Source of the DNA: a virus
Lineage: Duplodnaviria; Heunggongvirae; Uroviricota; Caudoviricetes
Virus record (IMG/VR): IMGVR_UViG_2630968533_000002
Direction: 5' to 3' (one strand)
DNA length: 20,741 bases
Positions 4,742-19,481 of this stretch are shown here, one piece after another (the stretch's first letter is position 1; every line of letters begins with the position of its first letter). The notes under the pieces were generated by a model. The model saw only the letters and a program-made list of their open reading frames with translations, was not told where the DNA came from and did no database searches. The translations under genes were made by a program, and so were the position numbers.

Positions 4742-6847
4742 TTATTGAGCTTCTTTTTGTGATGCCTGTGCGACTCTGGTGAGCGATTGTGTGACCGTAC
4801 TGATCGCTCTGTCATATGCTGTGCTACCTTTTGGCGTATTTGCCAGACGTAACAAGGCATTTCGTATAACAGGGCTTTCGTATGCCTTCGCTGCTCCGCC
4901 TACGGCACCAGCAGCAGGAACAACAAACGCAGCCGTTTTTAGCATCCCCGCTAATACTGCTGCGTTTATGATGCCACCACCAACTAACAATCCATAAAGC
5001 TGCTGACCATTTAAGTTTTGAACGTTCGCTTTTGCCGCGTGTCTTGTATCGTTGAGGTATTTAATAACGCCGTCCAGTTCCTTTCCATGTACGCCTTTAA
5101 AGAAAGTTGCTGATTGCTTCCTGTTCCGGTGTAACGCATTAATAAACTTTTCAACACTAATATTTCCAGACGGATCAGTCGCCTTATCTACAGCATTCTG
5201 AACTATGGCTGCTCGTGCGTTTTGCCTACCATTGTCATCCAGAAGCCTGTAAAGCTGAGAACGTTCTGATGGGCTTTGGCTAAAAACGAGTTTTGTTACA
5301 TCCTCAGGCGTGGCCTTGCCGCTGGCTATTGCCTTTTGAACGCGCGTTCTTCCCATCATGTCATTGAATTTAGACCATGAGCGATCAACCCTTGCCATAT
5401 TAATGGCTTCGTCTGCTCCAAGATTTTTGGCTACGGCTTTTTTCATATCCGCCGTATATGCCTTGTAGATAATATCGCTGGCTTTCTGGAGCGTATCTTT
5501 ATCAACAGTGTCAGATGACGCCATAAATCTCTTTCGAAGATCGGTTCTGTTTTCCCTCGCCAGACGCAGGTCATTTGGTCCGCTGGTGATATCGTCTTTA
5601 AATTGCTGCAAGACTTTTACCGCGGCTCTATCCTGAGATTTGCCCGGGCGGCTTAACACGGCAATCTGATTGTCGATAGCTTTTACCGTGTTTGAGAGAT
5701 CGACAGGGGTATCCCCCATAGCGTCAATTATGCGGTTATATCGCTTTCCTGCTGCCTCAATGAATTTTTGTTGCCCTTTAGTCGCAGATTCATAAAGCTG
5801 TTTATCAGAAATGCCACCCAGACCATCGCTAAATGTTCTGACTAAATTTTCTCGTGCTTGTTGTTGATTCAGCCGATTCTTACCGGTTCCAAAAAAAGGA
5901 ACTCTTTCGCCTAATGTCTGAGCCTGACTCTGCATAAAGGTTTTATCTTTCAGCATGTCACTGGTCATTAACGGCAGATTTCTTTCCGATGCAAAGTCGA
6001 CAGCAGCCTTTGCTTCAGGCGACATATCACCACGAACAGCCCTCGAAACCGCACTCGCTGTATTTTCCAGCCCCTTACCAATACCACCAATGCCAGCAGA
6101 AATTACCGTTTGTAACGGATCAATACCTTCTCCACCAGCAAGGCTGGTGGCTCCCTGTAGTGCTAAATCTGTAGCTGCTGATTTTCCTATGGCACCAAGC
6201 ACCGTTCCAGCCCTGCCCGCTGGTGTAAACGCCAGCGCATTAGCCAGAAACGATGCCACGTCTTGCGGCGATAAACCCGGCTTGTTCAGAGCATAATCAC
6301 CGGATGGCAGGGAAACGATAGTGTTACCCTTCTCATCCTGCCTTAATTTCGCTCCCATGCTCTGAAGAATCTTTTCCTGAGATGCGTCAGAGCCGAAAAG
6401 TTGAGACCATCGAGCTTTTAGAGCATCCATGCTGAGTGAGGTTAACTCTGGGGCAAGGTCGACATTTTGCAGTCTCTCCATCTCTGGAGTCATTCGGCTT
6501 TCGCCTGTTATAGCATCGCGCATCGCAGCCCCAAGACTGGCTCCCTGTTCTGCTGAACGCTCAAGCCCCTCTCTTTGCTGAGTAGCTAACTTTGCATACC
6601 CTGACGCAAGAGAATTATCAGATGATGTATGTTGAATATTTTGAGTTGCTGATTGGGCTCGGTCTATTTCATTCGTTGATGGTAGTGGATAGGCAGCATA
6701 AAAAGCCTGCTTAGCCTGTGCTACACTTTCTCCGGCTTGCGGGGCAACGACTTCATTGAAGTATTGCTCCTGAGCCTGCGCTTTTTGTTCTGGTGCTAAC
6801 GCCTGATACTGTGGAGAGGCGATAACATCTTTCCATGCTTTAGCCAT
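4742..6847 (-). CDS. 701-aa Ala/Gln/Gly-rich protein with hydrophobic Gly-rich C-terminus; P22 gp16-like ejection (DNA-transfer) protein candidate
   Basis: Long ORF, start overlaps upstream stop; composition and position as last gene of the 153/225/473/701 series; similarity to gp16 inferred from size, order and composition only. Confidence 0.7.
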   Translation of the reverse strand: MAKAWKDVIASPQYQALAPEQKAQAQEQYFNEVVAPQAGESVAQAKQAFYAAYPLPSTNEIDRAQSATQNIQHTSSDNSLASGYAKLATQQREGLERSAEQGASLGAAMRDAITGESRMTPEMERLQNVDLAPELTSLSMDALKARWSQLFGSDASQEKILQSMGAKLRQDEKGNTIVSLPSGDYALNKPGLSPQDVASFLANALAFTPAGRAGTVLGAIGKSAATDLALQGATSLAGGEGIDPLQTVISAGIGGIGKGLENTASAVSRAVRGDMSPEAKAAVDFASERNLPLMTSDMLKDKTFMQSQAQTLGERVPFFGTGKNRLNQQQARENLVRTFSDGLGGISDKQLYESATKGQQKFIEAAGKRYNRIIDAMGDTPVDLSNTVKAIDNQIAVLSRPGKSQDRAAVKVLQQFKDDITSGPNDLRLARENRTDLRKRFMASSDTVDKDTLQKASDIIYKAYTADMKKAVAKNLGADEAINMARVDRSWSKFNDMMGRTRVQKAIASGKATPEDVTKLVFSQSPSERSQLYRLLDDNGRQNARAAIVQNAVDKATDPSGNISVEKFINALHRNRKQSATFFKGVHGKELDGVIKYLNDTRHAAKANVQNLNGQQLYGLLVGGGIINAAVLAGMLKTAAFVVPAAGAVGGAAKAYESPVIRNALLRLANTPKGSTAYDRAISTVTQSLTRVAQASQKEAQ

Positions 6848-8268
6848 TAATCACCCCATAGTGAAGAAAAATTACTGCTGGCTGCTGGCTGTGATACCTG
6901 CTCAGATTGCGGCAATGTCTGCGACGAAGAAGAAGTTCCTCTGTCAACTGCTGAAATAACCCGCAAAGCATCATAAGCTCGACCAGAAGCAGCTTTCAGC
7001 GAATTGAACTGGTTTTCCATCTTCCTACGCTTGGTATCAATGGTTTTTGTGGAATCACCAGGCTGAGGGAAATACATTTGATAATATTTGGACATTTCAG
7101 CTGGTAGGATAGATGCCCCTGTTTCCTGACGGAGTATTGCCATTATTGCGTCATTAGCATTAACAACGTATTGCTGCTCTGTTGGGCTGAGCGTTAAGTT
7201 AGCCAGCGTCCCATTACCCAAAGCATTATTAATGATCGCCACTCGCTGTGGGCTAAGCTGGTCTTTCAGTGTATCTATTGAATCAAGAGCATCCCTAACT
7301 CTGTATGCAAATCCAGCAGCTTTTTTAGCCCCTTCTGGCGACTTTTCCATGATCTTTTGGGCTGTTGGCAAAGCTATTGGACGAAACCCATCTCCAGATA
7401 TTGGCTGGTTTAGTTTTCCCTGCTCTTCACTTCCGTCTGTGTAGTATTTTGTGACAGTGCCATCATCGTTTTCTCTAACACTCATTAATTTTTTGGCGTT
7501 TGTATTAATTCCAGCCGCTGCCGCAAATGCCGCAGCCCCCTCTGGATCCGCCTTTAACATTTGCGCGTACTGATTGTAATTCTGCATTGCGGCTGTTGGT
7601 GCATATGCTGACGTTAACGCATTTGCTCGGCTAATATCCTGCCCTCTCGCCTGAAGTGCTTCTCCAGCCTGATTGCTGCGGATTGTCTCTGCCAACTTGC
7701 CACGCTCAATATCCCGACCTTCCATTCGATCTTTGATATCGAAGTACTTCTCATGACCGAGAGAAAACAGTGCCATACTACCAGCAAGCCGCTGGAATCC
7801 CTGTGGATCATTAACATGCATTTCGGCAACAGACTCAGGAGAAATCCCCAAGCGACGCATTTCATCTTCGTTATCTGCTATGAATTTTCCAAATGCCCCA
7901 GTTCCGAGCGAAGATGCGATTTGAGCACTAGTCGCAAGATGACCAATAGAATTTCTCTGGTCGTCATCAATAAAGCCCATCCCTTTCTGAACGCTTTCAA
8001 ATTCTTCTGGATACTCAGAAATAAGACTGCGCATTTTGTTTCTGTCTCCAGACTCAAAAGCCCCGGCATATGCTTTCTGAAACTCTGCTTTACGCTGTTG
8101 TTGACGTGCCTGCTGATTAATCTCAGCAACGCCTCTTATCCCCTGTAGCGCCATTAAACCTACGTTTGGCTGCTGCTGATACTGCACAGGCTGAGGAACG
8201 GAAGAACGAGGAGCATTATCATTTTGCGGTGCCATGCTAGGCAGCCCGCCAAGTTGCCATGTCGCCAT
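6847..8268 (-). CDS. 473-aa protein; P22 gp20-like ejection protein candidate
   Basis: Long ORF translationally coupled to both neighbours; size close to P22 gp20 (about 471 aa, from memory). Confidence 0.7.
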   Translation of the reverse strand: MATWQLGGLPSMAPQNDNAPRSSVPQPVQYQQQPNVGLMALQGIRGVAEINQQARQQQRKAEFQKAYAGAFESGDRNKMRSLISEYPEEFESVQKGMGFIDDDQRNSIGHLATSAQIASSLGTGAFGKFIADNEDEMRRLGISPESVAEMHVNDPQGFQRLAGSMALFSLGHEKYFDIKDRMEGRDIERGKLAETIRSNQAGEALQARGQDISRANALTSAYAPTAAMQNYNQYAQMLKADPEGAAAFAAAAGINTNAKKLMSVRENDDGTVTKYYTDGSEEQGKLNQPISGDGFRPIALPTAQKIMEKSPEGAKKAAGFAYRVRDALDSIDTLKDQLSPQRVAIINNALGNGTLANLTLSPTEQQYVVNANDAIMAILRQETGASILPAEMSKYYQMYFPQPGDSTKTIDTKRRKMENQFNSLKAASGRAYDALRVISAVDRGTSSSSQTLPQSEQVSQPAASSNFSSLWGD

Positions 8269-8945
8269 TAGAATCCAAGCCCCCCAACAAGACCAATAAG
8301 CCCACCACCAATAGCGCCTGCCGCAGTACCTATTCCAGGAACAACGGAACCAAGTTGAGCACCCGCTAAAGCGCCTGATGCTGCCCCACCAATACCACGC
8401 GCAAGACTGGATGGCTGCTGCGCCTGACCTGCACGAATAGCGCCAAGCCCCTGCAAGAGTTGTCCGGTATTATTGGCGTAGTTTTGCCCTGCCGTTGCCT
8501 GCCCTGATGCCGCATTCATCCCGACATTTAGCAGGTTTCCATAATTTTGCATTTGCCCACTAAGCCAATTGTTATAAAGCATGGGCGCAATGGAAGATAA
8601 CTGGTTACTGGTAGCTGTTGAGCCAAGCCCCCCGGTAGCTTCTGCTGAGACAAGGTTCTGATAACGGGCCTGATCTGCCTGTGTTTTATATAAACCAGAA
8701 CCAAAGAAATCATTCGCGGCTTTATTCTGCCCTTCCAGAGTCATCAGTCCTTGTAGTTGTTGTAAAGCAGGCAATCCGACTTCTGCATACGGCTTGAGAT
8801 TATTCATCACCGTATTCCACTGCTCGCGCTGCAAATCAATTGCCTGCTGCTGGGCCTTCGCCTGAGCTTTAGAGGCACCACCATCACCGCCTTTTTCGTA
8901 TACGGCACGATTGAGATGTTTATGAGCTATATGGGTAATTAACAT
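8268..8945 (-). CDS. 225-aa protein with Gly-rich hydrophobic C-terminal tail; P22 gp7-like ejection protein candidate
   Basis: ORF overlapping neighbours; C-terminus GIGGAASGALAGAQLGSVVPGIGTAAGAIGGGLIGLVGGLGF; size close to P22 gp7 (about 229 aa, from memory). Confidence 0.7.
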   Translation of the reverse strand: MLITHIAHKHLNRAVYEKGGDGGASKAQAKAQQQAIDLQREQWNTVMNNLKPYAEVGLPALQQLQGLMTLEGQNKAANDFFGSGLYKTQADQARYQNLVSAEATGGLGSTATSNQLSSIAPMLYNNWLSGQMQNYGNLLNVGMNAASGQATAGQNYANNTGQLLQGLGAIRAGQAQQPSSLARGIGGAASGALAGAQLGSVVPGIGTAAGAIGGGLIGLVGGLGF

Positions 8946-9400
8946 TCGCTGAATTCCTTATATTGTTGCCGAGTTAACTGATAAAGCGTTACGCCGACGG
9001 GTTTACCACATCTGATATAAGCATCATCAAGGTGACCAACACGGGTAGCGCCAAGCAAACGGATAATTGCCCGTCCGTATTTGGTGGTGTCAGGAACCAT
9101 GGTAATGCTGTTAAGGAATGGTGAGTTTTCGAGAAGCCATTTGCAGAATAATCGATGCCCTTGCAGTGCATATTCACCACGGAATCCGGGGTCGTACACC
9201 GCATGGCATTCAACAATGCTATGCCAGAAGTTACGCACTTCATGAACGCCAGCCAGCACCAATCCTTCGTAGATGCCGAGATATACCGCATCAGGCTTGA
9301 TGTAGTACGTGTGCCCCGGCTCAACAATATTTTCGGTATTGCCAGGATCGTTAAGAAAGGCCTGTAATCGCACAGGGTTATCAATAAATTTTAGTTCCAT
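8939..9400 (-). CDS. 153-aa protein, first large gene of the operon; gp14-like position
   Basis: ORF overlapping the 225-aa gene by 7 bp; function unknown; assignment by position only. Confidence 0.6.
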   Translation of the reverse strand: MELKFIDNPVRLQAFLNDPGNTENIVEPGHTYYIKPDAVYLGIYEGLVLAGVHEVRNFWHSIVECHAVYDPGFRGEYALQGHRLFCKWLLENSPFLNSITMVPDTTKYGRAIIRLLGATRVGHLDDAYIRCGKPVGVTLYQLTRQQYKEFSEC

Positions 9401-9416
9401 GCGATGCCATCCATTT

Positions 9417-9578
9417 TCACATACAGCCTGCCAGCGCCTTATCTATTAACCCTCGTGCAATTTCATGTAGAGTTGGCGCTACTCCAATTCCTGATTTTTT
9501 ACGCTGCTCTTCCTGAATTTTCTTTATCGCTTCCATTTGCTTCTCACTTATCAATACCGGCTTTACTGAAATAGCCAT
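9417..9578 (-). CDS. Small RHH-like protein (53 aa), not in the ORF track; putative operon regulator
   Basis: Translated by hand: MAISVKPVLISEKQMEAIKKIQEEQRKKSGIGVAPTLHEIARGLIDKALAGCM; AAGGGGG Shine-Dalgarno 4-5 nt upstream; stop 17 bp before the 153-aa start. Confidence 0.45.
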   Translation of the reverse strand: MAISVKPVLISEKQMEAIKKIQEEQRKKSGIGVAPTLHEIARGLIDKALAGCM

Positions 9579-10071
9579 AACGCCCCCTTAGAACTGTATA
9601 AAACAACAGTTATTATAGTTTCATAAAACGCAATATTCATCATGTTTATTGCAAAATGTGAAACGAATAGCACAAGAAAATGCCACCGCTCAGTAGCTGG
9701 TGGCATCGTTCTGTGTGTCAAGTTTTGACAGGTTTTTTATGGACTCTAAAAACTATATTTATGGTGTCGCATTACTCTTCATGGCAGGCGCTTTCCAGTT
9801 CTGCCCTTGCTTCTGGCTCCATTGGTAATTTGATTCGCGATCAGCTATGCGGATGGTTTGCTGAACAGGCATAACAACATCTCAGAGGCTATTTTTTGAA
9901 CTACGAAAATTTCGTAGTGCTCACCTTCAAAAACGTCACGCCCTTGTACACTGGATTTTACAAAAGTCTCGTAAAACTCTTTCCTGTTCTGGGCTATGTG
10001 CCAAACCGCAGCGAATACCTCCGTCTGCCAGATGAGCAAAACATACCTTATAAAGAAAATCGCTGTTTTTG

Positions 10072-10175
10072 CTGTACCACCTGTACCACCATGCCACAAA
10101 CCCTTGTGTGGCGCGGCCTACAGGTGGTACAGGTGGGTAAAAATGACCTCTACCCACCTGTACAGACCTGTACCA
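10072..10175. repeat. Iteron cluster B: multiple copies of GGTGGTACAGG / CCTGTACCACC in both orientations
   Basis: Read directly: CTGTACCAC-CTGTACCACC (10072-10090), GGTGGTACAGGTGG (10123-10136), CCACCTGTACAGACCTGTACCA (10154-10175). ORF-track ORFs across this region are probably spurious. Confidence 0.6.
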
Positions 10176-10180
10176 TTTAT

Positions 10181-10918
10181 TTAATTTTTACCCATAGCAG
10201 CACATAATCCCTTTTTTGAAATATTGAAAAATGCGTTCATTCTTCCCGCTGGTTTAACCTTGTAGCCGCTTGCCACCATCGCCGCAATAAATGCTCCGTT
10301 GGGGATATAGTGCGGGTGATCACTGTGCTGGTGGTTTATCTGGTTATATCGCTCCACTTCATGCTTCAACGTGTCAGATGTGGGGTTATCCTGCGGGAAG
10401 CTCTCAATCTGGGCATTACTCATCCCGTTGTCTCTGATCCATCTCAGGCAGCTTTTCGCCGATACGATAAATGACGGGTTATCAAGCGGGTTTTCCCAGT
10501 CCGCATTCCGGTTGTGGAGCGCCAGTCCGTCAAGGTTAAATTGTGGGTATTCAGCGGTAATTACTGTCACTGCGTGGCGGATTTCAGTCTCGTCACAACA
10601 TGGCTCATCTCCCACACCAGCAGGGTAATAATCTGAACCACCGGGACTGATACAGCGTTTACCACTGAAAGGCCATTGCTTCGCCATTTCGGGTGTTGAG
10701 TGATTACCGTCGCTCCGTTCGCGCTGTGCCTCTGTCCACTGGCTGGCATATTCAGTAAATGAAACCCTTTGCCCCTGGCGCATCCAGTGCGCAATCATAA
10801 TTAAAGTGCGTTCCAGACTTTGGATGTCGCCAGCATTCCCGCACTGTGTAGCGAAACTTTTTAATTCTTCGCGCTCCGTTCTGGTCATTCCCTGCGGTAT
10901 GCAATAGTTATTGTTCAT
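10181..10918 (-). CDS. Hypothetical 245-aa protein between the two iteron clusters
   Basis: Long ORF, overlaps the upstream 76-aa ORF; no family recognised. Confidence 0.55.
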   Translation of the reverse strand: MNNNYCIPQGMTRTEREELKSFATQCGNAGDIQSLERTLIMIAHWMRQGQRVSFTEYASQWTEAQRERSDGNHSTPEMAKQWPFSGKRCISPGGSDYYPAGVGDEPCCDETEIRHAVTVITAEYPQFNLDGLALHNRNADWENPLDNPSFIVSAKSCLRWIRDNGMSNAQIESFPQDNPTSDTLKHEVERYNQINHQHSDHPHYIPNGAFIAAMVASGYKVKPAGRMNAFFNISKKGLCAAMGKN

Positions 10919-11138
10919 GTTTTACCTCTCTGATTTCTGCTGCCATATCTGTTGGCTCTATACAGCCGTCACGACTTGCCACGCAGGGGATAATGATTTC
11001 AACGGTATCGCCGTCAATACACATTTCAACATTCGCCCATGCCGCAATGGGTAGCCAGTCTGAACGCCCCTCAAACCGTAGCTGCCAGCCAGAGGAAGAA
11101 GCTAACTGGCGCACTTTGTAAAATGGTGTGCTCATCAT
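10908..11138 (-). CDS. Hypothetical 76-aa protein
   Basis: ORF immediately downstream of iteron cluster A, overlapping the 245-aa gene start; no family recognised. Confidence 0.4.
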   Translation of the reverse strand: MMSTPFYKVRQLASSSGWQLRFEGRSDWLPIAAWANVEMCIDGDTVEIIIPCVASRDGCIEPTDMAAEIREVKHEQ

Positions 11139-11182
11139 TGGTCGTTCCCTCTCAGCCAGCCAGAAGAAATGCGTTTGTTAAT

Positions 11183-11285
11183 GGTATAGGTGGTACAGGT
11201 CTGGTATAGGTAAGATATTGACCTGTACCACTATAACGCATTGTTTTTAATGCTGAATTAGCAAAGTGGTATAGGTGGTACAGGT
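11183..11285. repeat. Iteron cluster A (putative replication origin): perfect 18-bp direct repeat GGTATAGGTGGTACAGGT at 11183-11200 and 11268-11285, with inverted partial copy ACCTGTACCAC at 11221-11231
   Basis: Read directly; lies 30-130 bp beyond the stop of the primase-helicase gene, where PICI/P4-type elements place their iteron origins. Confidence 0.6.
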
Positions 11286-11314
11286 AAAAACGTTCTTCTT
11301 GTAAAAAGACTATA

Positions 11315-13669
11315 TTAAAAAACATCATAACCCCCCATACCGATCAGACGGGCAAACGCAGCCTGTAGAACTCCGACCTCTGGTAGTTCGTAGAACACGC
11401 CATTCCCACGGTCTGGTCTTCCATGCTTCACCAGCCCCATTTGTGCAAGTGACTTACCCAGTAGTGATCTGGCTGCTGGTTCTTTAAGCTTTTCCCCACG
11501 CTCAAGCGACCACGCTACAAATCGACTAACCATATCCTTTGCAAACAAACGGACTTCGCCATTAAACGGAGGTTCATTGATTAGCTCGCCATAAAGAAAC
11601 AATTCAACGCCAGACAGCCCCAGCAAGATTTCTTCACGTAAGGCATCGGTCTGTGGCGCTCGTTGAGGGTCAAAACCTGATAGATCCACCCCTTTAAGAT
11701 GCCAAAGCAACTTTGCGGCACCGCCATCATTAAGCCAACTGTACAGCCGATCAAAATACTCCCGGCTCTGTGCTTTTTCAGGAGATGGCTCAAGCACGAG
11801 ATAGCGGCGCTCTCTTATCCCTGCCTGTAATACCTGTGTGCTGTTACTGGCAAATATCAACCGGGCAAAATTCGGCATTGGTTCAGCATCAATTCCCTTG
11901 CGCTCAAGGTTAAACGTCGGTTCGCTAATAATCGCTTTAAGTCTGTCAGCTTCAGACGGCTTGTGGATCGTCACTTCGTCAGCAAATACCAGTAGCTTGT
12001 TAGCAAGTATTGAATTGAAGCGCCCTGAAATATGTCCCGCCCCGTTAATGTGGGCGGCGTACTGCCCCAGTATTTGCAGCAGCGGTTTAACCGTTGTGCC
12101 TTTCCCTGTGCCCGGGACAGATTTCATTACGATTGCCACGGACGGTTTTTCATCAGGCTTTTGGATAATGTGCGCCATCCACTGGATAAGATATTGGTAT
12201 GCCTCTTCATTCCCGGCACAGACAACCTGCAACAGGTGATTAAGGTATACCGTGCAATCTCCTTCAATTGGTTCCAGTGCCAGCCCCTCATACAGATTAA
12301 AAACATCGTCAGGGCATTTGTCTGGTACTGGATAAAATCCTACGCCTCCTGGCTTGTAGTTCTTCCCACTCCATGACAGCCACGCCGATCCCGCCAGCTT
12401 TCTGGCGACTCTCGGTTTATGATGAAAATAATGCTGAAATTGTGATAAATCCTCGAAAACGTGCGATACACCGCCGGTTTGAGAAGGCTTTAGCGACACC
12501 ACCTTGTGTTTCCCGCCGATGGTGACATGCGTAAACGTCCGGTTGATTTCTTCGAGGACAGCAATTTCATCATCGCTTAACACCTCGCCAGAACTGATCT
12601 CATTCAGCGCCCCGACTGACTGTTTGTGATTTTTCACCTGCGCCCCTTTCCCCCGTGGCTGGTACATCGAATCTTTAAATGCTGCTGTGGCTGCCGCCAG
12701 CCCGTGTTGTTGGTGATAGTCGTTCCAGTCGGCTTTATAGTCAGTCGGTGGCAGAGACACCCAGCCAGCTACGGAAATAGCGGCCCTCTCTGCGGCATCT
12801 TTCCCCGTGTTGATCCCTCCACTTTCGGAGTTTCCTTGCTGGTGATCGTTATCTGCGGCAATGATGATTTGTGCCTGTGGATATGTTCTGCGCATGACTT
12901 CCGCTACTGGCAACAGGTTGCCAGCGTCGATTGCTGCCACTGTCATTGCGTCAGGGCGAATTAAATGGCACGACAGGGCGGTAGCCACCCCCTCAGCAAT
13001 TATGATGCTGTGAGGTCGTTTCTGTGCGTTTATGGCGTGATATGCCCCCCGCTTTGCCGAACCTGTCAGGAGTCTTTTTTCACCATGTGAGGTAATAGTC
13101 TGTGCTGCTGTGACTGCGCCGGATTTATCCACCAGCGCCAGCAATAGAGATCCATCTGGCAACACGGGAAATGTAAAATCACCTACCCCTTTCGCAACCA
13201 GATAATCAGATTTGCTGTTTACAGCCTTTCTGCGCATGTCATCAAACTGACGGGAAAACGTATCCCGTCTTTGTTGTTCATCCTTCTCTGCCCTTTTCAG
13301 GCGCTCCTGTTCGCGTCGCTGGCGCTCGGTTTCCAGTTGTTCCCGTTTCTGGCTGGTGGCTTCTGGTGTTTCTGTTGTCCGGTAATCAATACCCAGAACA
13401 TCAGCGGCAAGCAGCGCCGCCTCTGTTGTGTCGCAGTTATTTACGCGTTTAATTAAATCCAGCCCATCACCAGCGCCGCACTGATTACAGATGAAGCTAC
13501 CGCGCCCGTTGTCATCGAACCGGAATCGATCTTTGCCCCCACATGCAGGGCAGGGAGCATGACGGCGAGGAGAGTCAGGGACATTTATGTTCAGGCAGCC
13601 CAGCACATGAGGCCAGTTGTTTTCAGACGCACTGATAACCTGACGGATAAGATCAATGTTTCGCATCAC
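11315..13669 (-). CDS. P4 alpha / D5-type primase-helicase (784 aa)
   Basis: N-terminal CxxC..CxxC zinc-ribbon (APCPACGG...ICNQCGAGDG), TOPRIM-like AADND motif, C-terminal helicase Walker A (VPGTGKGTT) and Walker B (LLVFADEV). Confidence 0.85.
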   Translation of the reverse strand: MMRNIDLIRQVISASENNWPHVLGCLNINVPDSPRRHAPCPACGGKDRFRFDDNGRGSFICNQCGAGDGLDLIKRVNNCDTTEAALLAADVLGIDYRTTETPEATSQKREQLETERQRREQERLKRAEKDEQQRRDTFSRQFDDMRRKAVNSKSDYLVAKGVGDFTFPVLPDGSLLLALVDKSGAVTAAQTITSHGEKRLLTGSAKRGAYHAINAQKRPHSIIIAEGVATALSCHLIRPDAMTVAAIDAGNLLPVAEVMRRTYPQAQIIIAADNDHQQGNSESGGINTGKDAAERAAISVAGWVSLPPTDYKADWNDYHQQHGLAAATAAFKDSMYQPRGKGAQVKNHKQSVGALNEISSGEVLSDDEIAVLEEINRTFTHVTIGGKHKVVSLKPSQTGGVSHVFEDLSQFQHYFHHKPRVARKLAGSAWLSWSGKNYKPGGVGFYPVPDKCPDDVFNLYEGLALEPIEGDCTVYLNHLLQVVCAGNEEAYQYLIQWMAHIIQKPDEKPSVAIVMKSVPGTGKGTTVKPLLQILGQYAAHINGAGHISGRFNSILANKLLVFADEVTIHKPSEADRLKAIISEPTFNLERKGIDAEPMPNFARLIFASNSTQVLQAGIRERRYLVLEPSPEKAQSREYFDRLYSWLNDGGAAKLLWHLKGVDLSGFDPQRAPQTDALREEILLGLSGVELFLYGELINEPPFNGEVRLFAKDMVSRFVAWSLERGEKLKEPAARSLLGKSLAQMGLVKHGRPDRGNGVFYELPEVGVLQAAFARLIGMGGYDVF

Positions 13670-14024
13670 CGTACCCCACGTGGTCTATAGCGTTTGCGAT
13701 ATGGCTAACCAGCATCTGCCACTTGGTTATTCCGTAATCAGTCAGCATGCCATCATTGTTTAGCCACATATCAAATTCAGCGGTTGTCGCAAGTTTCCAC
13801 TTATCGCCGTGGACAGTCCTCATTGCTGGGTACATGAATGCGCAAATCAGATCACAAACATCTGACGGCTTCAGAGATGTAGTAATGGTGCGTCCCTCTG
13901 GCGTCTGAATTGCCATTTTCTCTTCACCAGTAGAATGAAGGTTATGAATCCACACAGCGCCAGCAATCTTTGCCACCTGCTCTCCGATTGCGGAGCTAAG
14001 CGCCATTTCTGCATTTTCACGCAT
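13653..14024 (-). CDS. Hypothetical small protein (123 aa; alternative start at 14006)
   Basis: ORF in the same-strand chain, overlapping both neighbours. Confidence 0.5.
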   Translation of the reverse strand: MRENAEMALSSAIGEQVAKIAGAVWIHNLHSTGEEKMAIQTPEGRTITTSLKPSDVCDLICAFMYPAMRTVHGDKWKLATTAEFDMWLNNDGMLTDYGITKWQMLVSHIANAIDHVGYGDAKH

Positions 14025-15636: not shown

Positions 15637-16657
15637 TGGTTGCCCCCGTTTTTCCTGGCATTTCGCCACCTTCCAGCAGGAAATGAACGTCACGAACGGC
15701 GAGATCCAATATCGCGAGTAACGCCTTCAGTCTTTCGTCTCGTGAGGGAGAGTTGCTCACCAGAATGTCGTTAATCACTTCTGTCAGTGTGATGATCTGG
15801 CTTGTGCGTTCGAGGGGATCCATATGCACATCGTAGGTTTTAATCATGTGCCACCTCCATGCGGATACGACCAGCAAAAAAGCAGACGTGATCGCGCACC
15901 AGAGAACGGCGAGCATCGCGTTCAGACTCGGCAGCAATATGATGAATTTTGGCGGTAATTGTCGGGCAATCGCGGCGAACTGCGGCGATAATCCAGATAA
16001 ATTGCGGTTTTTGGGTAGGGGTAGTAGCCAGCATGTGGCAGCCTCCTTGATTGATGGTTTATAGCCACCGCCCAAGAGACCAATCTTGCTGGCGGTGGAC
16101 TGTACGGAGTTGGCCTTACTGGCAATCAAGGAAACCAGCCTACCCGAAGGTAGCCCCATACAGCCCACCATTGATAAGGTGTGCGTGTGCGCCGATACAA
16201 AAAAAGACGCTGGCGCGTCATGTATCGCCTCGATTGTCAGCGGGAGGCCAATCCCGGCACCCGTTTTATGAGGTGCCTTATAACCATAAACCGTGTTGCC
16301 GCATAACGGCAAGCTCTTTTTTATGGACTCCGAAAACTCACTATTGGAAGCACCAGATGCACAATACATCGCGCTCATTTCGTTAACGTCGCGAGTGTGG
16401 ACGAAGGTTTTTGTGGAGTCACTACGCGAGCAGAGAAAGCCATCTACGACCAGAAATTCTCTGGCGCTGCCGCTGACCTTCTCAACGCTAACATCATCGA
16501 CCGTAATTTCTGACATAGTTAAGGCATCCGCTCCTACCACCAGTAAATGATAAACTTTGCTTGTATCTGCTGTATTAATGCCTGACTTTGACGCCATATT
16601 GCTGGATTTTGGCGACATGCCAGCCAGTGAAAATATCTTCTTCTGGACGGGTATCAT
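15629..16657 (-). CDS. 342-codon ORF, Ser/Leu-rich; the C-terminal 72 codons (15629-15847) may be a separate gene; a second ORF is embedded out of frame at 15840-16034
   Basis: Start ATG at 16657 overlaps the TGA of the upstream 59-aa gene (ATGA); internal MIKTYD start at 15847 has a GGAGGTGG Shine-Dalgarno; true gene structure is uncertain. Confidence 0.4.
15840..16034 (-). CDS. 64-aa ORF, possibly Icd-like (host cell-division inhibitor family), embedded out of frame in the 342-codon ORF
   Basis: Canonical AAGGAGG Shine-Dalgarno 7 nt upstream of ATG; [10 protein letters not shown]...[14 protein letters not shown] motif loosely recalls Icd-like proteins of P4-type elements (memory only). Confidence 0.4.
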   Translation of the reverse strand: MLATTPTQKPQFIWIIAAVRRDCPTITAKIHHIAAESERDARRSLVRDHVCFFAGRIRMEVAHD

Positions 16658-17671: not shown

Positions 17672-18103
17672 TTAGGCGGCGTTAAACGCGTCCGGGTAGA
17701 GTTTCAGAATGTCGGCAATTTCCTGCTGAGAAAGTCCGTTGTGATCATTTATGCTCGCAAGATGGTTAACATGAGTGATCACTTTCAGAACATCACCACG
17801 GCAGGAGAAACGGTAGCGAAGGTGTGTTCCGATACCATCAGGATTCTTTTCGTCGATACGCTCCAGAGTGATTCCAAGCTGGCGTTCTAACTCTGTTGCA
17901 TAGTTACGACCAGAAGACAGACGACAGTAGCGAAGAATGTCATTTTCTGTCCATCCCTCTATACCAGTACGCAGCATATAGACTCTGGCACGATGCTTTT
18001 TCGGTGTGCGCTTTGGTGCTTGAAGGGATTTTGTAAGGGGCGTAACATCAGATACGCGAATATCTGAATTAGCCGCCTGTAATGGGCGGTTTTTCTTTTC
18101 CAT
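17672..18103 (-). CDS. Hypothetical basic protein (143 aa)
   Basis: ORF immediately downstream of alpA with its start overlapping the alpA stop; no family recognised. Confidence 0.5.
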   Translation of the reverse strand: MEKKNRPLQAANSDIRVSDVTPLTKSLQAPKRTPKKHRARVYMLRTGIEGWTENDILRYCRLSSGRNYATELERQLGITLERIDEKNPDGIGTHLRYRFSCRGDVLKVITHVNHLASINDHNGLSQQEIADILKLYPDAFNAA

Positions 18104-18306
18104 CAGACCACCTTCCCGCGGCGTTCTGCCAGCCAGTTGTGAATCTCAACCGCATCAAACGCAGTTATTTTTTCTCCCAGCTTTACCGGACGTGGTAGTG
18201 AACCGTTTCTTACTTTACGGTCGATGGTGGATACACTAACGCCCAGCAATTCAGCCAGGCGGAAGCGTCTGATATAGCCTTTTGTAGGAATAGTGTCGGT
18301 GTTCAT
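18103..18306 (-). CDS. alpA: AlpA-family excisionase/transcriptional regulator (67 aa)
   Basis: Small basic protein with helix-turn-helix LAELLGVSVSTIDRKVRNGSLPRPVKLGEKITAF..EIHNWL, typical of AlpA/Vis-type proteins; sits one gene away from the integrase as in CP4-57-type elements. Confidence 0.7.
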   Translation of the reverse strand: MNTDTIPTKGYIRRFRLAELLGVSVSTIDRKVRNGSLPRPVKLGEKITAFDAVEIHNWLAERRGKVV

Positions 18307-19386: not shown

Positions 19387-19481
19387 TGCGTCACCTTTTA
19401 CGCTGCGCCTTATTTTGTGATTGAGCCAGGCGGTAAGGCTTCCCGCTTTTCGCCCCGTCGAGCTAGGCTCAATCTATTCAG

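Follow-up and report, generated by a model that had tools for sequence, protein, structure and literature searches.

The closest described systems to the locus reported here are the replication origins of EcCICFT073, a phage-inducible chromosomal island (PICI), and of P4. A pri-rep-ori segment of EcCICFT073 drives plasmid replication, as shown experimentally (PMC6092414), and the P4 alpha protein carries a C-terminal winged-helix DNA-binding domain (PMC2777425). In the GenBank record of P4 (NC_001609) the type-1 repeats of ori are annotated, and crr, located beside the alpha gene, is labelled 'cis required region for replication'. We analyzed a 20,741-nt stretch of DNA from a member of the Caudoviricetes (IMG/VR record IMGVR_UViG_2630968533_000002), referred to below as the window. 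Two clusters of short repeats (iterons), A and B, bracket two genes encoding proteins of 76 and 245 amino acids (aa) just 3' of a primase-helicase gene in this window. We consider it quite probable that A and B are two mirror-image halves of one replication origin of the P4/PICI type, split by the two genes, because the order and spacing of their units match P4 ori and, in EcCICFT073, either half of the experimentally validated origin, and because sister islands with a different replicase have different iterons at the same position.

Iteron units and module layout

The repeating unit of both clusters was a 9-bp iteron, TGGTAYAGG. The exact 8-mer GGTACAGG occurred six times in the 20.7-kb window, while 0.35 copies were expected and none of 100 shuffles reached six. 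All six copies were confined to 10080-10174 and 11192-11284. When the whole window was scanned for the 9-mer unit with at most one mismatch, the sole match outside both clusters was located at 12323. A first-pass annotation of this DNA had proposed two repeat clusters, one on each side of the 76-aa/245-aa gene pair, immediately downstream of the primase-helicase gene; the confinement of the 8-mer bears out the clusters, and the gene coordinates agree with the proposed position.

For cluster A the first-pass annotation had described a perfect 18-bp direct repeat with its copies 85 bp apart. The perfection and the spacing of this repeat held, and its length was 19 nt (TGGTATAGGTGGTACAGGT, 11182-11200 and 11267-11285, 85 bp start to start). 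The inverted partial copy expected between the direct repeats was found (GACCTGTACCAC, 11220-11231), together with an extra direct unit at 11202-11210 that had been overlooked. In cluster B the 11-mer GGTGGTACAGG was present in both orientations, at 10071 (one mismatch), 10080 (no mismatch), 10123 (no mismatch) and 10167 (two mismatches). Searching cluster B with the 9-bp unit TGGTACAGG and allowing at most two mismatches gave six copies (10071-, 10080-, 10125+, 10147-, 10157- and 10167-, the sign denoting orientation), four of them good and two degenerate. A count of at least five copies in both orientations, as originally claimed for cluster B, is reached if the degenerate copies are included and not otherwise.

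The clusters are ordered mirror-image modules rather than loose sets of repeats (Table 1). On the plus strand, the start-to-start spacings were 9/11/20/45/9 in module A and 9/45/22/10/10 in module B, and the unit order of B was the mirror image of that of A. The doublets of both modules pointed outward, and the triplets pointed toward the 76-aa and 245-aa genes. Module A began 31 nt past the stop codon of the primase gene, and the distance from the triplet of A to that of B was 1015 nt, with the two genes inside.

Table 1. Positions in the window of the two candidate origin modules, their repeat units and the associated genes.
Feature	Position	Strand	Sequence or basis
Candidate origin module A (cluster A)	11182..11284	.	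unit map; spacer GC; layout as P4 ori and EcCICFT073 module 1
Module A, tandem units	11182; 11191; 11202	+	TGGTATAGG; TGGTACAGG; TGGTATAGG
Module A, inverted unit	11222-11230		CCTGTACCA
Module A, spacer	11231-11266		36 nt, 31% GC
Module A, final doublet	11267; 11276		tandem units
Candidate origin module B (cluster B)	10071..10175	.	inverted copy of A; layout as EcCICFT073 module 2
Module B, doublet	10071; 10080	+	GCTGTACCA; CCTGTACCA, as read on the plus strand
Module B, spacer	10089-10124		36 nt, 64% GC
Module B, spacer contents	10093-10112; 10112-10116		palindrome GCCACA..TGTGGC; CGCGG
Module B, inverted unit	10125		TGGTACAGG
Module B, triplet	10147; 10157; 10167		first two degenerate
Primase-helicase, presumed initiator	11315..13669	-	Pfam and PHROG matches; RefSeq start is the ATG at 13666
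Primase-helicase, C-terminal ~84 residues	11318..11569	-	predicted winged helix, candidate iteron-binding domain
76-aa gene	10908..11138	-	between the candidate origin halves; seen only beside this primase C-terminal half and iteron type
245-aa gene	10181..10918	-	between the candidate origin halves; small Enterobacterales family
Left boundary of exchangeable replication module	9978..9985	.	end of similarity to EcCIO42/EcCIMP1-type islands

A consensus scan of both clusters identified no sigma-70-like promoter and no terminator. The hairpin in the spacer of module B was considered as an intrinsic terminator and rejected, as it is not followed by a T-run. An open reading frame (ORF) of 58 aa (11152-11328, minus strand) and further ORFs across 9845-10207 overlap the iteron clusters; they are not annotated in RefSeq and are probably not genes.

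The clusters might also be read as terminal inverted repeats of a small mobile cassette carrying both genes, since their outermost 29 nt form an inverted repeat with 83% complementarity and the Buttiauxella counterpart of this repeat matches at 19/19 nt. However, neither of the two proteins enclosed by the repeats was a transposase or recombinase, and no direct target duplication was detected, the flanks merely lengthening the inverted repeat. In EcCICFT073 both modules are contiguous with nothing between them. A transposon-like cassette was rejected on these three points. Module A is, moreover, found without B in a Pantoea locus (L006), and the 245-aa gene is found elsewhere without these repeats, so that a mobile cassette appears extremely improbable.

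Comparison with the origins of EcCICFT073 and P4

The origin of EcCICFT073 (L045, 7010-7238) consists of two mirror-image modules located directly 3' of the PICI replicase gene. In each module, a spacer of about 40 nt separates two tandem iterons from a single inverted iteron, behind which three more follow. The spacings of module 1 are 9/49/19/11/9, compared with 9/45/20/11/9 in the window, and module 2 mirrors module 1. The spacers differ in composition, one being AT-rich (23% GC; 31% in the window) and the other GC-rich (55%; 64% in the window), the latter with GCCGCGCC and a palindrome, as in cluster B (CCGCG). The EcCICFT073 iteron GGTAGACAG is related to GGTACAGG of the window. The two loci differ in three respects. 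The halves of the EcCICFT073 origin lie 34 nt apart, triplet to triplet, whereas those of the window are separated by 1015 nt and two genes; in structure, nothing but this distance sets the two layouts apart. The EcCICFT073 Pri-Rep is composed of D5_N, DUF5906 and Pox_D5 without a primase domain and showed no BLASTP similarity to the primase of the window. Origin function was demonstrated for EcCICFT073, while that of the window is predicted.

The type-1 repeats of P4 ori were rescanned and comprised three tandem, one inverted and two tandem units with spacings of 10/11/21/44/10, which is the repeat order of module A with near-identical spacing. P4 also has a second, distant iteron cluster, crr, with doublets opposite to those of ori. 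The alpha protein shares the order Zn_Ribbon_Prim, Toprim_3 and DUF5906 with the primase of the window and adds D5_N and Pox_D5; an immunity RNA of the C4/CI type and icd- and ash-like genes are also common to both elements. Nevertheless, several differences were observed. The P4 iteron is GGTGAACAG, and crr consists of a directly repeated 120-bp sequence in two copies, whose internal order differs from that of the modules. P4 ori lies 4.7 kb from crr, across the alpha gene, while both modules of the window are 3' of the primase gene. The helicase/origin-binding half of the window's primase showed no detectable sequence homology to alpha, only its N-terminal 338 residues being alpha-like. The backbone of the island in the window is that of a PICI (AlpA, PerC), and the P4 genes sid, psu and delta are missing. 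The P4 cosmid paper contained nothing on crr.

The iterons of P4, EcCICFT073 and the window were visibly related. In module A, two units on one side and one plus three units on the other flank the 36-nt spacer of 31% GC, as in PICI origins, and the element is located just 3' of a pri-rep gene in an island with PICI hallmarks. Judged by position and layout, the element belongs to the PICI origin class. The split of the half-origins by a conserved gene pair is its distinguishing trait within this known kind of origin. The first-pass annotation had compared the repeats to replicase-bound origin iterons such as those of P4 ori/crr and of PICI origins; this comparison is supported in silico by the layout, by the conservation of the units and by their co-inheritance with the C-terminal half of the replicase.

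The islands EcCIO42 and EcCIMP1, which encode a TOPRIM + DUF927 primase, share the island backbone with the window, and their iterons are placed as in the window with respect to the left flank that they have in common with it; EcCIMP1 also shares the thrW site. In contrast to the window, they carry another replicase C-terminal half and the iteron GTTGGTTCA in one cluster only, in which an AT-rich spacer separates three units from three inverted ones, and the 76-aa and 245-aa genes are absent. The word 'iteron' was not found in the EcCIMP1 publication (PMC11773190), where both matches to 'ori' were unrelated words, and no text matching the iteron was found in the supplements of the PICI paper.

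In the GC-rich spacers of B-type modules, a CCGCG(CC) motif and an adjoining short palindrome were kept across elements with different iterons, including the validated EcCICFT073 origin (window 10093-10116; L045 7187-7219; L005 ~8601-8635; L034 ~1480-1500). These could represent a host-factor or priming site.

Plasmids P1 and F have a second initiator-binding array, incA and incC respectively, outside the array that holds the melting site. These additional arrays, which are next to the rep gene but not within the minimal origin, exert a negative effect, and the initiators are of the RepA/RepE type, not primase-helicases. By comparison with incA and incC, module A alone could be the origin and module B a negative control locus, which would titrate or 'handcuff' the initiator and thereby limit copy number. 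The spacer of B is not AT-rich (64% GC), B is more degenerate than A and B can be missing (L006), all of which would fit such a role. However, a B-like GC-rich module is an integral and adjacent part of the validated EcCICFT073 origin, and P4 crr is, according to its GenBank annotation, required for replication and not inhibitory. A satellite that replicates in a burst after induction would also have little obvious need for copy-number control. We regard a negative role of module B as unlikely.

Conservation of the modules in other loci

Conservation of the repeats near homologous primase genes had been named as a check on the origin assignment, and the same iterons were indeed detected together with the primase type of the window in five other loci. 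In Buttiauxella (L005), Raoultella (L032) and a metagenome (L042) the order was as in the window, i.e., module A, a small gene (75 aa in Buttiauxella, 76 aa in the other two), a larger gene (~250, 245 and 248 aa, respectively) and module B. The Pantoea locus (L006) contained module A only and a truncated primase gene. In Xenorhabdus (L035), TGGTACAG modules were located at 825-917 and 5763-5866, with the primase operon between them and a separation of 4.85 kb; their doublets face outward. The first Xenorhabdus module lies within a called ash ORF, and the arrangement resembles that of P4 ori and crr.

In a joint alignment of the A modules from E. coli, Buttiauxella, Raoultella and Pantoea, the unit columns were 89% identical and the between-unit columns 53%, and the spacer length was constant at 35-37 nt. 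A comparison of A with B within the window gave 80% identity for unit columns versus 33% for between-unit columns, and the between-unit columns of the two Buttiauxella modules were 24% identical. Because the units are similar while the between-unit columns are at background, the units and spacing of B are being maintained and B is not a recent copy of A; on the same ground, a recent duplication was rejected. Among three E. coli variants, no substitution was observed in any of the six units of module A. In module B of these variants the doublet (D) units, the inverted (I) unit and the best triplet (T) unit were invariant, and the spacer and the degenerate units varied. At least 80% of the stretch 9400-11700 was found in 127 of 5426 complete genomes.

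Alternatively, the ancestral origin could have been contiguous, in which case module B would be a decaying, non-functional remnant dating from the insertion of the two genes. Degenerate units are present in the B modules of the window (10147 and 10157), Raoultella and L042, and a decayed B-like remnant was found downstream of the 245-aa homolog in L034, beside a GTGAGGAG replicon. However, the A-B comparisons in E. coli and Buttiauxella (unit columns 80%, between-unit columns 24-33%) are expected from selection on the units and not from neutral decay. The 36-nt spacer length and the 9/45/20 spacings were also retained, and within E. coli no variation was observed in the D units, the I unit or the best T unit of B. 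A mere remnant therefore seems improbable.

Iteron type and the two halves of the primase-helicase

The primase-helicase of the window comprises a Zn-ribbon (Zn_Ribbon_Prim), a TOPRIM primase domain (Toprim_3), a DUF5906 helicase of superfamily 3 (SF3) and a predicted C-terminal winged helix. It showed 32% identity to P4 alpha over residues 8-338 only. For the C-terminal half, neither P4 alpha nor the Pri-Rep of EcCICFT073 showed detectable sequence similarity, and D5_N and Pox_D5 were not matched in Pfam. A sequence search of the Protein Data Bank (PDB) with the primase matched only the NrS-1 helicase core and not the P4 origin-binding domain, which was also not among the top structural matches to the C-terminal domain. 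The predicted DNA-binding domain of this primase cannot be classed as a homolog of that of P4 alpha.

The N-terminal domain and the C-terminal half of the primase have separate histories. The EcCIO42 primase is 88% identical to that of the window in the N-terminal primase domain and unrelated in the C-terminal half, and its island carries the iteron GTTGGTTCA at the same position. The Raoultella primase is only 49% identical in the N-terminal domain, while segments of its C-terminal half are 82-96% identical, and the iteron is TGGTACAGG. For Xenorhabdus the values were 47% in the N-terminal domain, 71% in the helicase and 43% in the C-terminal domain, with the iteron TGGTACAG(T/A). Seventeen further loci shared only the N-terminal domain, and in each of them a repeated 8-mer was enriched in the 500 nt 3' of the gene, examples being TGAACCAAC, TGAGACAAC, ACGGGTTA and ATCCCTAC. 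Since these mosaic primases act as natural domain swaps, the comparison indicates that iteron type tracks the C-terminal half (helicase and winged helix) of the primase, not its N-terminal primase domain, and the C-terminal half is thereby indicated as the specificity determinant.

The 76-aa and 245-aa genes

Homologs of the 76-aa protein adjoin the primase in five loci (L005, L006, L032, L035 and L042). Searches of Pfam, PHROGs, NCBIfam and PADLOC with both proteins gave a single weak match, to a PHROG of unknown function, and no family was found for the 76-aa protein in these databases. The AlphaFold2 model of the 245-aa protein had a predicted local distance difference test (pLDDT) score of 88.5, and its matches to winged-helix structures were only weak. 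The position of the 245-aa homologs was always directly behind the origin; the replicases of the islands concerned belong to the DUF5906, DUF927 or AAA_25/RepA class, and their iterons are unrelated. Those with 54-67% identity stood beside CCCCACTTTT, AAGTGCGCG, AAGTGGGT, TGAGACCAC and ACCGACAA. Because its homologs accompany three replicase classes and unrelated iterons, the 245-aa protein is not the iteron-specific binder. The proposal that the two proteins are replication or partition factors found no support, the 245-aa family not being iteron-specific and the 76-aa protein having no family. Both genes probably receive read-through transcription from the primase operon and are probably carried along as passengers, without a part in initiation.

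The repeats might instead be operators for a transcription factor, the 245-aa or the 76-aa protein, that controls the operon of these two genes. In favour of operators, it is precisely these two genes that the clusters enclose, a winged-helix-like element is part of the 245-aa model, and the 76-aa gene is strictly tied to this iteron type. However, the 245-aa homologs with 54-67% identity stand beside entirely different iterons, on which ground 245-aa operators were rejected, and neither cluster has a sigma-70-like promoter. The layout is shared with the P4 and EcCICFT073 origins, where both genes are absent, and in Xenorhabdus the modules flank the primase operon instead. An operator function is therefore very unlikely.

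Two further loci carry members of the 245-aa family next to iterons. In L044, a DUF927-type island, two complete ACCGACAA clusters (4823-4926 and 5798-5957) bracket a 260-aa homolog of the 245-aa protein, which makes this locus a second, independent case of origin arrays on both sides of a gene of this family. In L034 (374-696 and 1431-1545), the 245-aa homolog is located beside a different replicon with GTGAGGAG repeats, and a decayed B-type module and the 3' flank of the window, GCAAAAACAGCGATTTTCTTTATAAG, are retained. The L034 locus suggests that B travels with the 245-aa gene. Since family members are bracketed by origin-type arrays in two unrelated replicon types (TGGTACAGG with DUF5906 in the window, ACCGACAA with DUF927 in L044) and directly follow the origin in a third replicase class (AAA_25/RepA), it is conceivable, though doubtful, that the gene pair is no passive insert and that the winged-helix-like 245-aa protein is a general factor associated with PICI origins. 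If so, this protein might connect the satellite origin to host or helper replication proteins, or the location of its gene inside the origin might tie expression or gene dosage to the firing of the origin.

The motif TTCTGGCTGGC had four matches in the window with at most one mismatch, compared with 0.44 expected. Sites at 11155-11165 and 11084-11094 (minus strand) were among them; the motif is located just upstream of the 76-aa start codon and recurred upstream of 76-aa or 245-aa homologs in L005, L032, L035, L040 and L044. It may be a regulatory or translation-initiation element.

Proposed mode of initiation

From the architecture of the modules, their conservation and their co-inheritance with the C-terminal half of the replicase, we infer the following mode of initiation. 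The primase-helicase of the island would bind the iterons via its C-terminal winged-helix domain, melt the AT-rich spacer of module A directly 3' of its own gene and assemble there as an SF3 helicase. Priming would be performed by the Zn-ribbon/TOPRIM domain, as by P4 alpha at ori. Module A is likely to be the origin proper and the site of melting and helicase loading, because it adjoins the primase gene and contains the AT-rich spacer. Module B, with its GC-rich spacer, would act in cis as a second half-site, like P4 crr or the second half of the EcCICFT073 origin, and would be brought to A through protein-mediated looping over the 1-kb insert. We favour a positive role of B in cis like that of crr, but B may also be regulatory or partly dispensable.

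Several observations weigh against the assignment of A and B to one origin bound by the primase-helicase. The comparison covered a small sample, in which five or six loci are independent. The degeneration of module B is evident in Raoultella and L042, and the Pantoea locus L006, whose primase gene is truncated, has no module B; B may be dispensable. The 76-aa protein and the C-terminal half of the primase are equally strict in their association with the iteron type; co-inheritance alone does not separate the two, and so the 76-aa protein may be the iteron binder instead.

Features of the island

The window was 99.9% identical to an island at tRNA-Thr (thrW), beside proA, in E. coli MDR_56. The genes of this island are ordered as integrase, AlpA, antirepressor, ash and icd-like genes, primase, ejection-protein genes and PerC. 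AlpA is encoded at 18103-18306, int and PerC are present, and the block from int to the ejection genes is all on one strand. The window represents an integrated phage satellite, namely a PICI of the EcCIMP1 kind that also shows several traits of P4. EcCIMP1 (L037) has the same thrW site and backbone and has been mobilised experimentally by the P22-like phage Kapi1 (PMC11773190); EcCIO42 (L002), named in PMC6092414, likewise has this site and backbone.

The similarity of EcCIMP1 and EcCIO42 to the window ended at ~9980, ~90 bp before cluster B, and returned upstream of the primase gene. Because the similarity to the sister islands stops and resumes at these points, the cassette exchanged between these islands, which are nearly identical elsewhere, consists of the primase, both clusters and the two genes. 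A megablast search of 9800-13700 against a phage collection gave a 38-nt match only. Neither an Rfam nor a tRNA scan gave a match around the clusters.

The 245-aa gene is followed by a set of ejection genes (4742-9400, minus strand) that are P22-like, encoding gp14 (DUF2824), gp7, gp20 and a 701-aa gp16-like protein; the same set is found in EcCIMP1 and EcCIO42. Between 9579 and 10070, ~500 nt carry no annotated gene and are conserved in EcCIMP1-type islands up to ~9980. This stretch contains a palindrome, TACGAAAATTTCGTA (9902-9916), a diverged second copy, TACAAAAGTCTCGTA (9959-9973; in EcCIO42 this copy is a palindrome, TACGAAAGTCTCGTA), and a terminator-like hairpin (9682-9697, minus strand), and could be a regulatory or packaging site.

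At 16088-16276 and 19407-19473 on the minus strand, Rfam searches identified a C4 antisense RNA (79 bits) and isrK (65 bits), both within the 342-aa 'ash' ORF, and an int-alpA RNA between int and alpA. By these matches the island has an RNA immunity region of the P4/P1 type, and the long ash ORF is probably over-called.

Implications for satellite replication

For a satellite replicon that is widespread in E. coli, this analysis provides a concrete origin annotation that can be tested. It points to one origin blueprint common to P4, EcCICFT073 and the window despite the dissimilar C-terminal halves of their replicases. The distances between the two sites, i.e., 34 nt in EcCICFT073, 1 kb in the window, 4.85 kb in Xenorhabdus and 4.7 kb between P4 ori and crr, would form a natural series in which to ask why a second site is needed.

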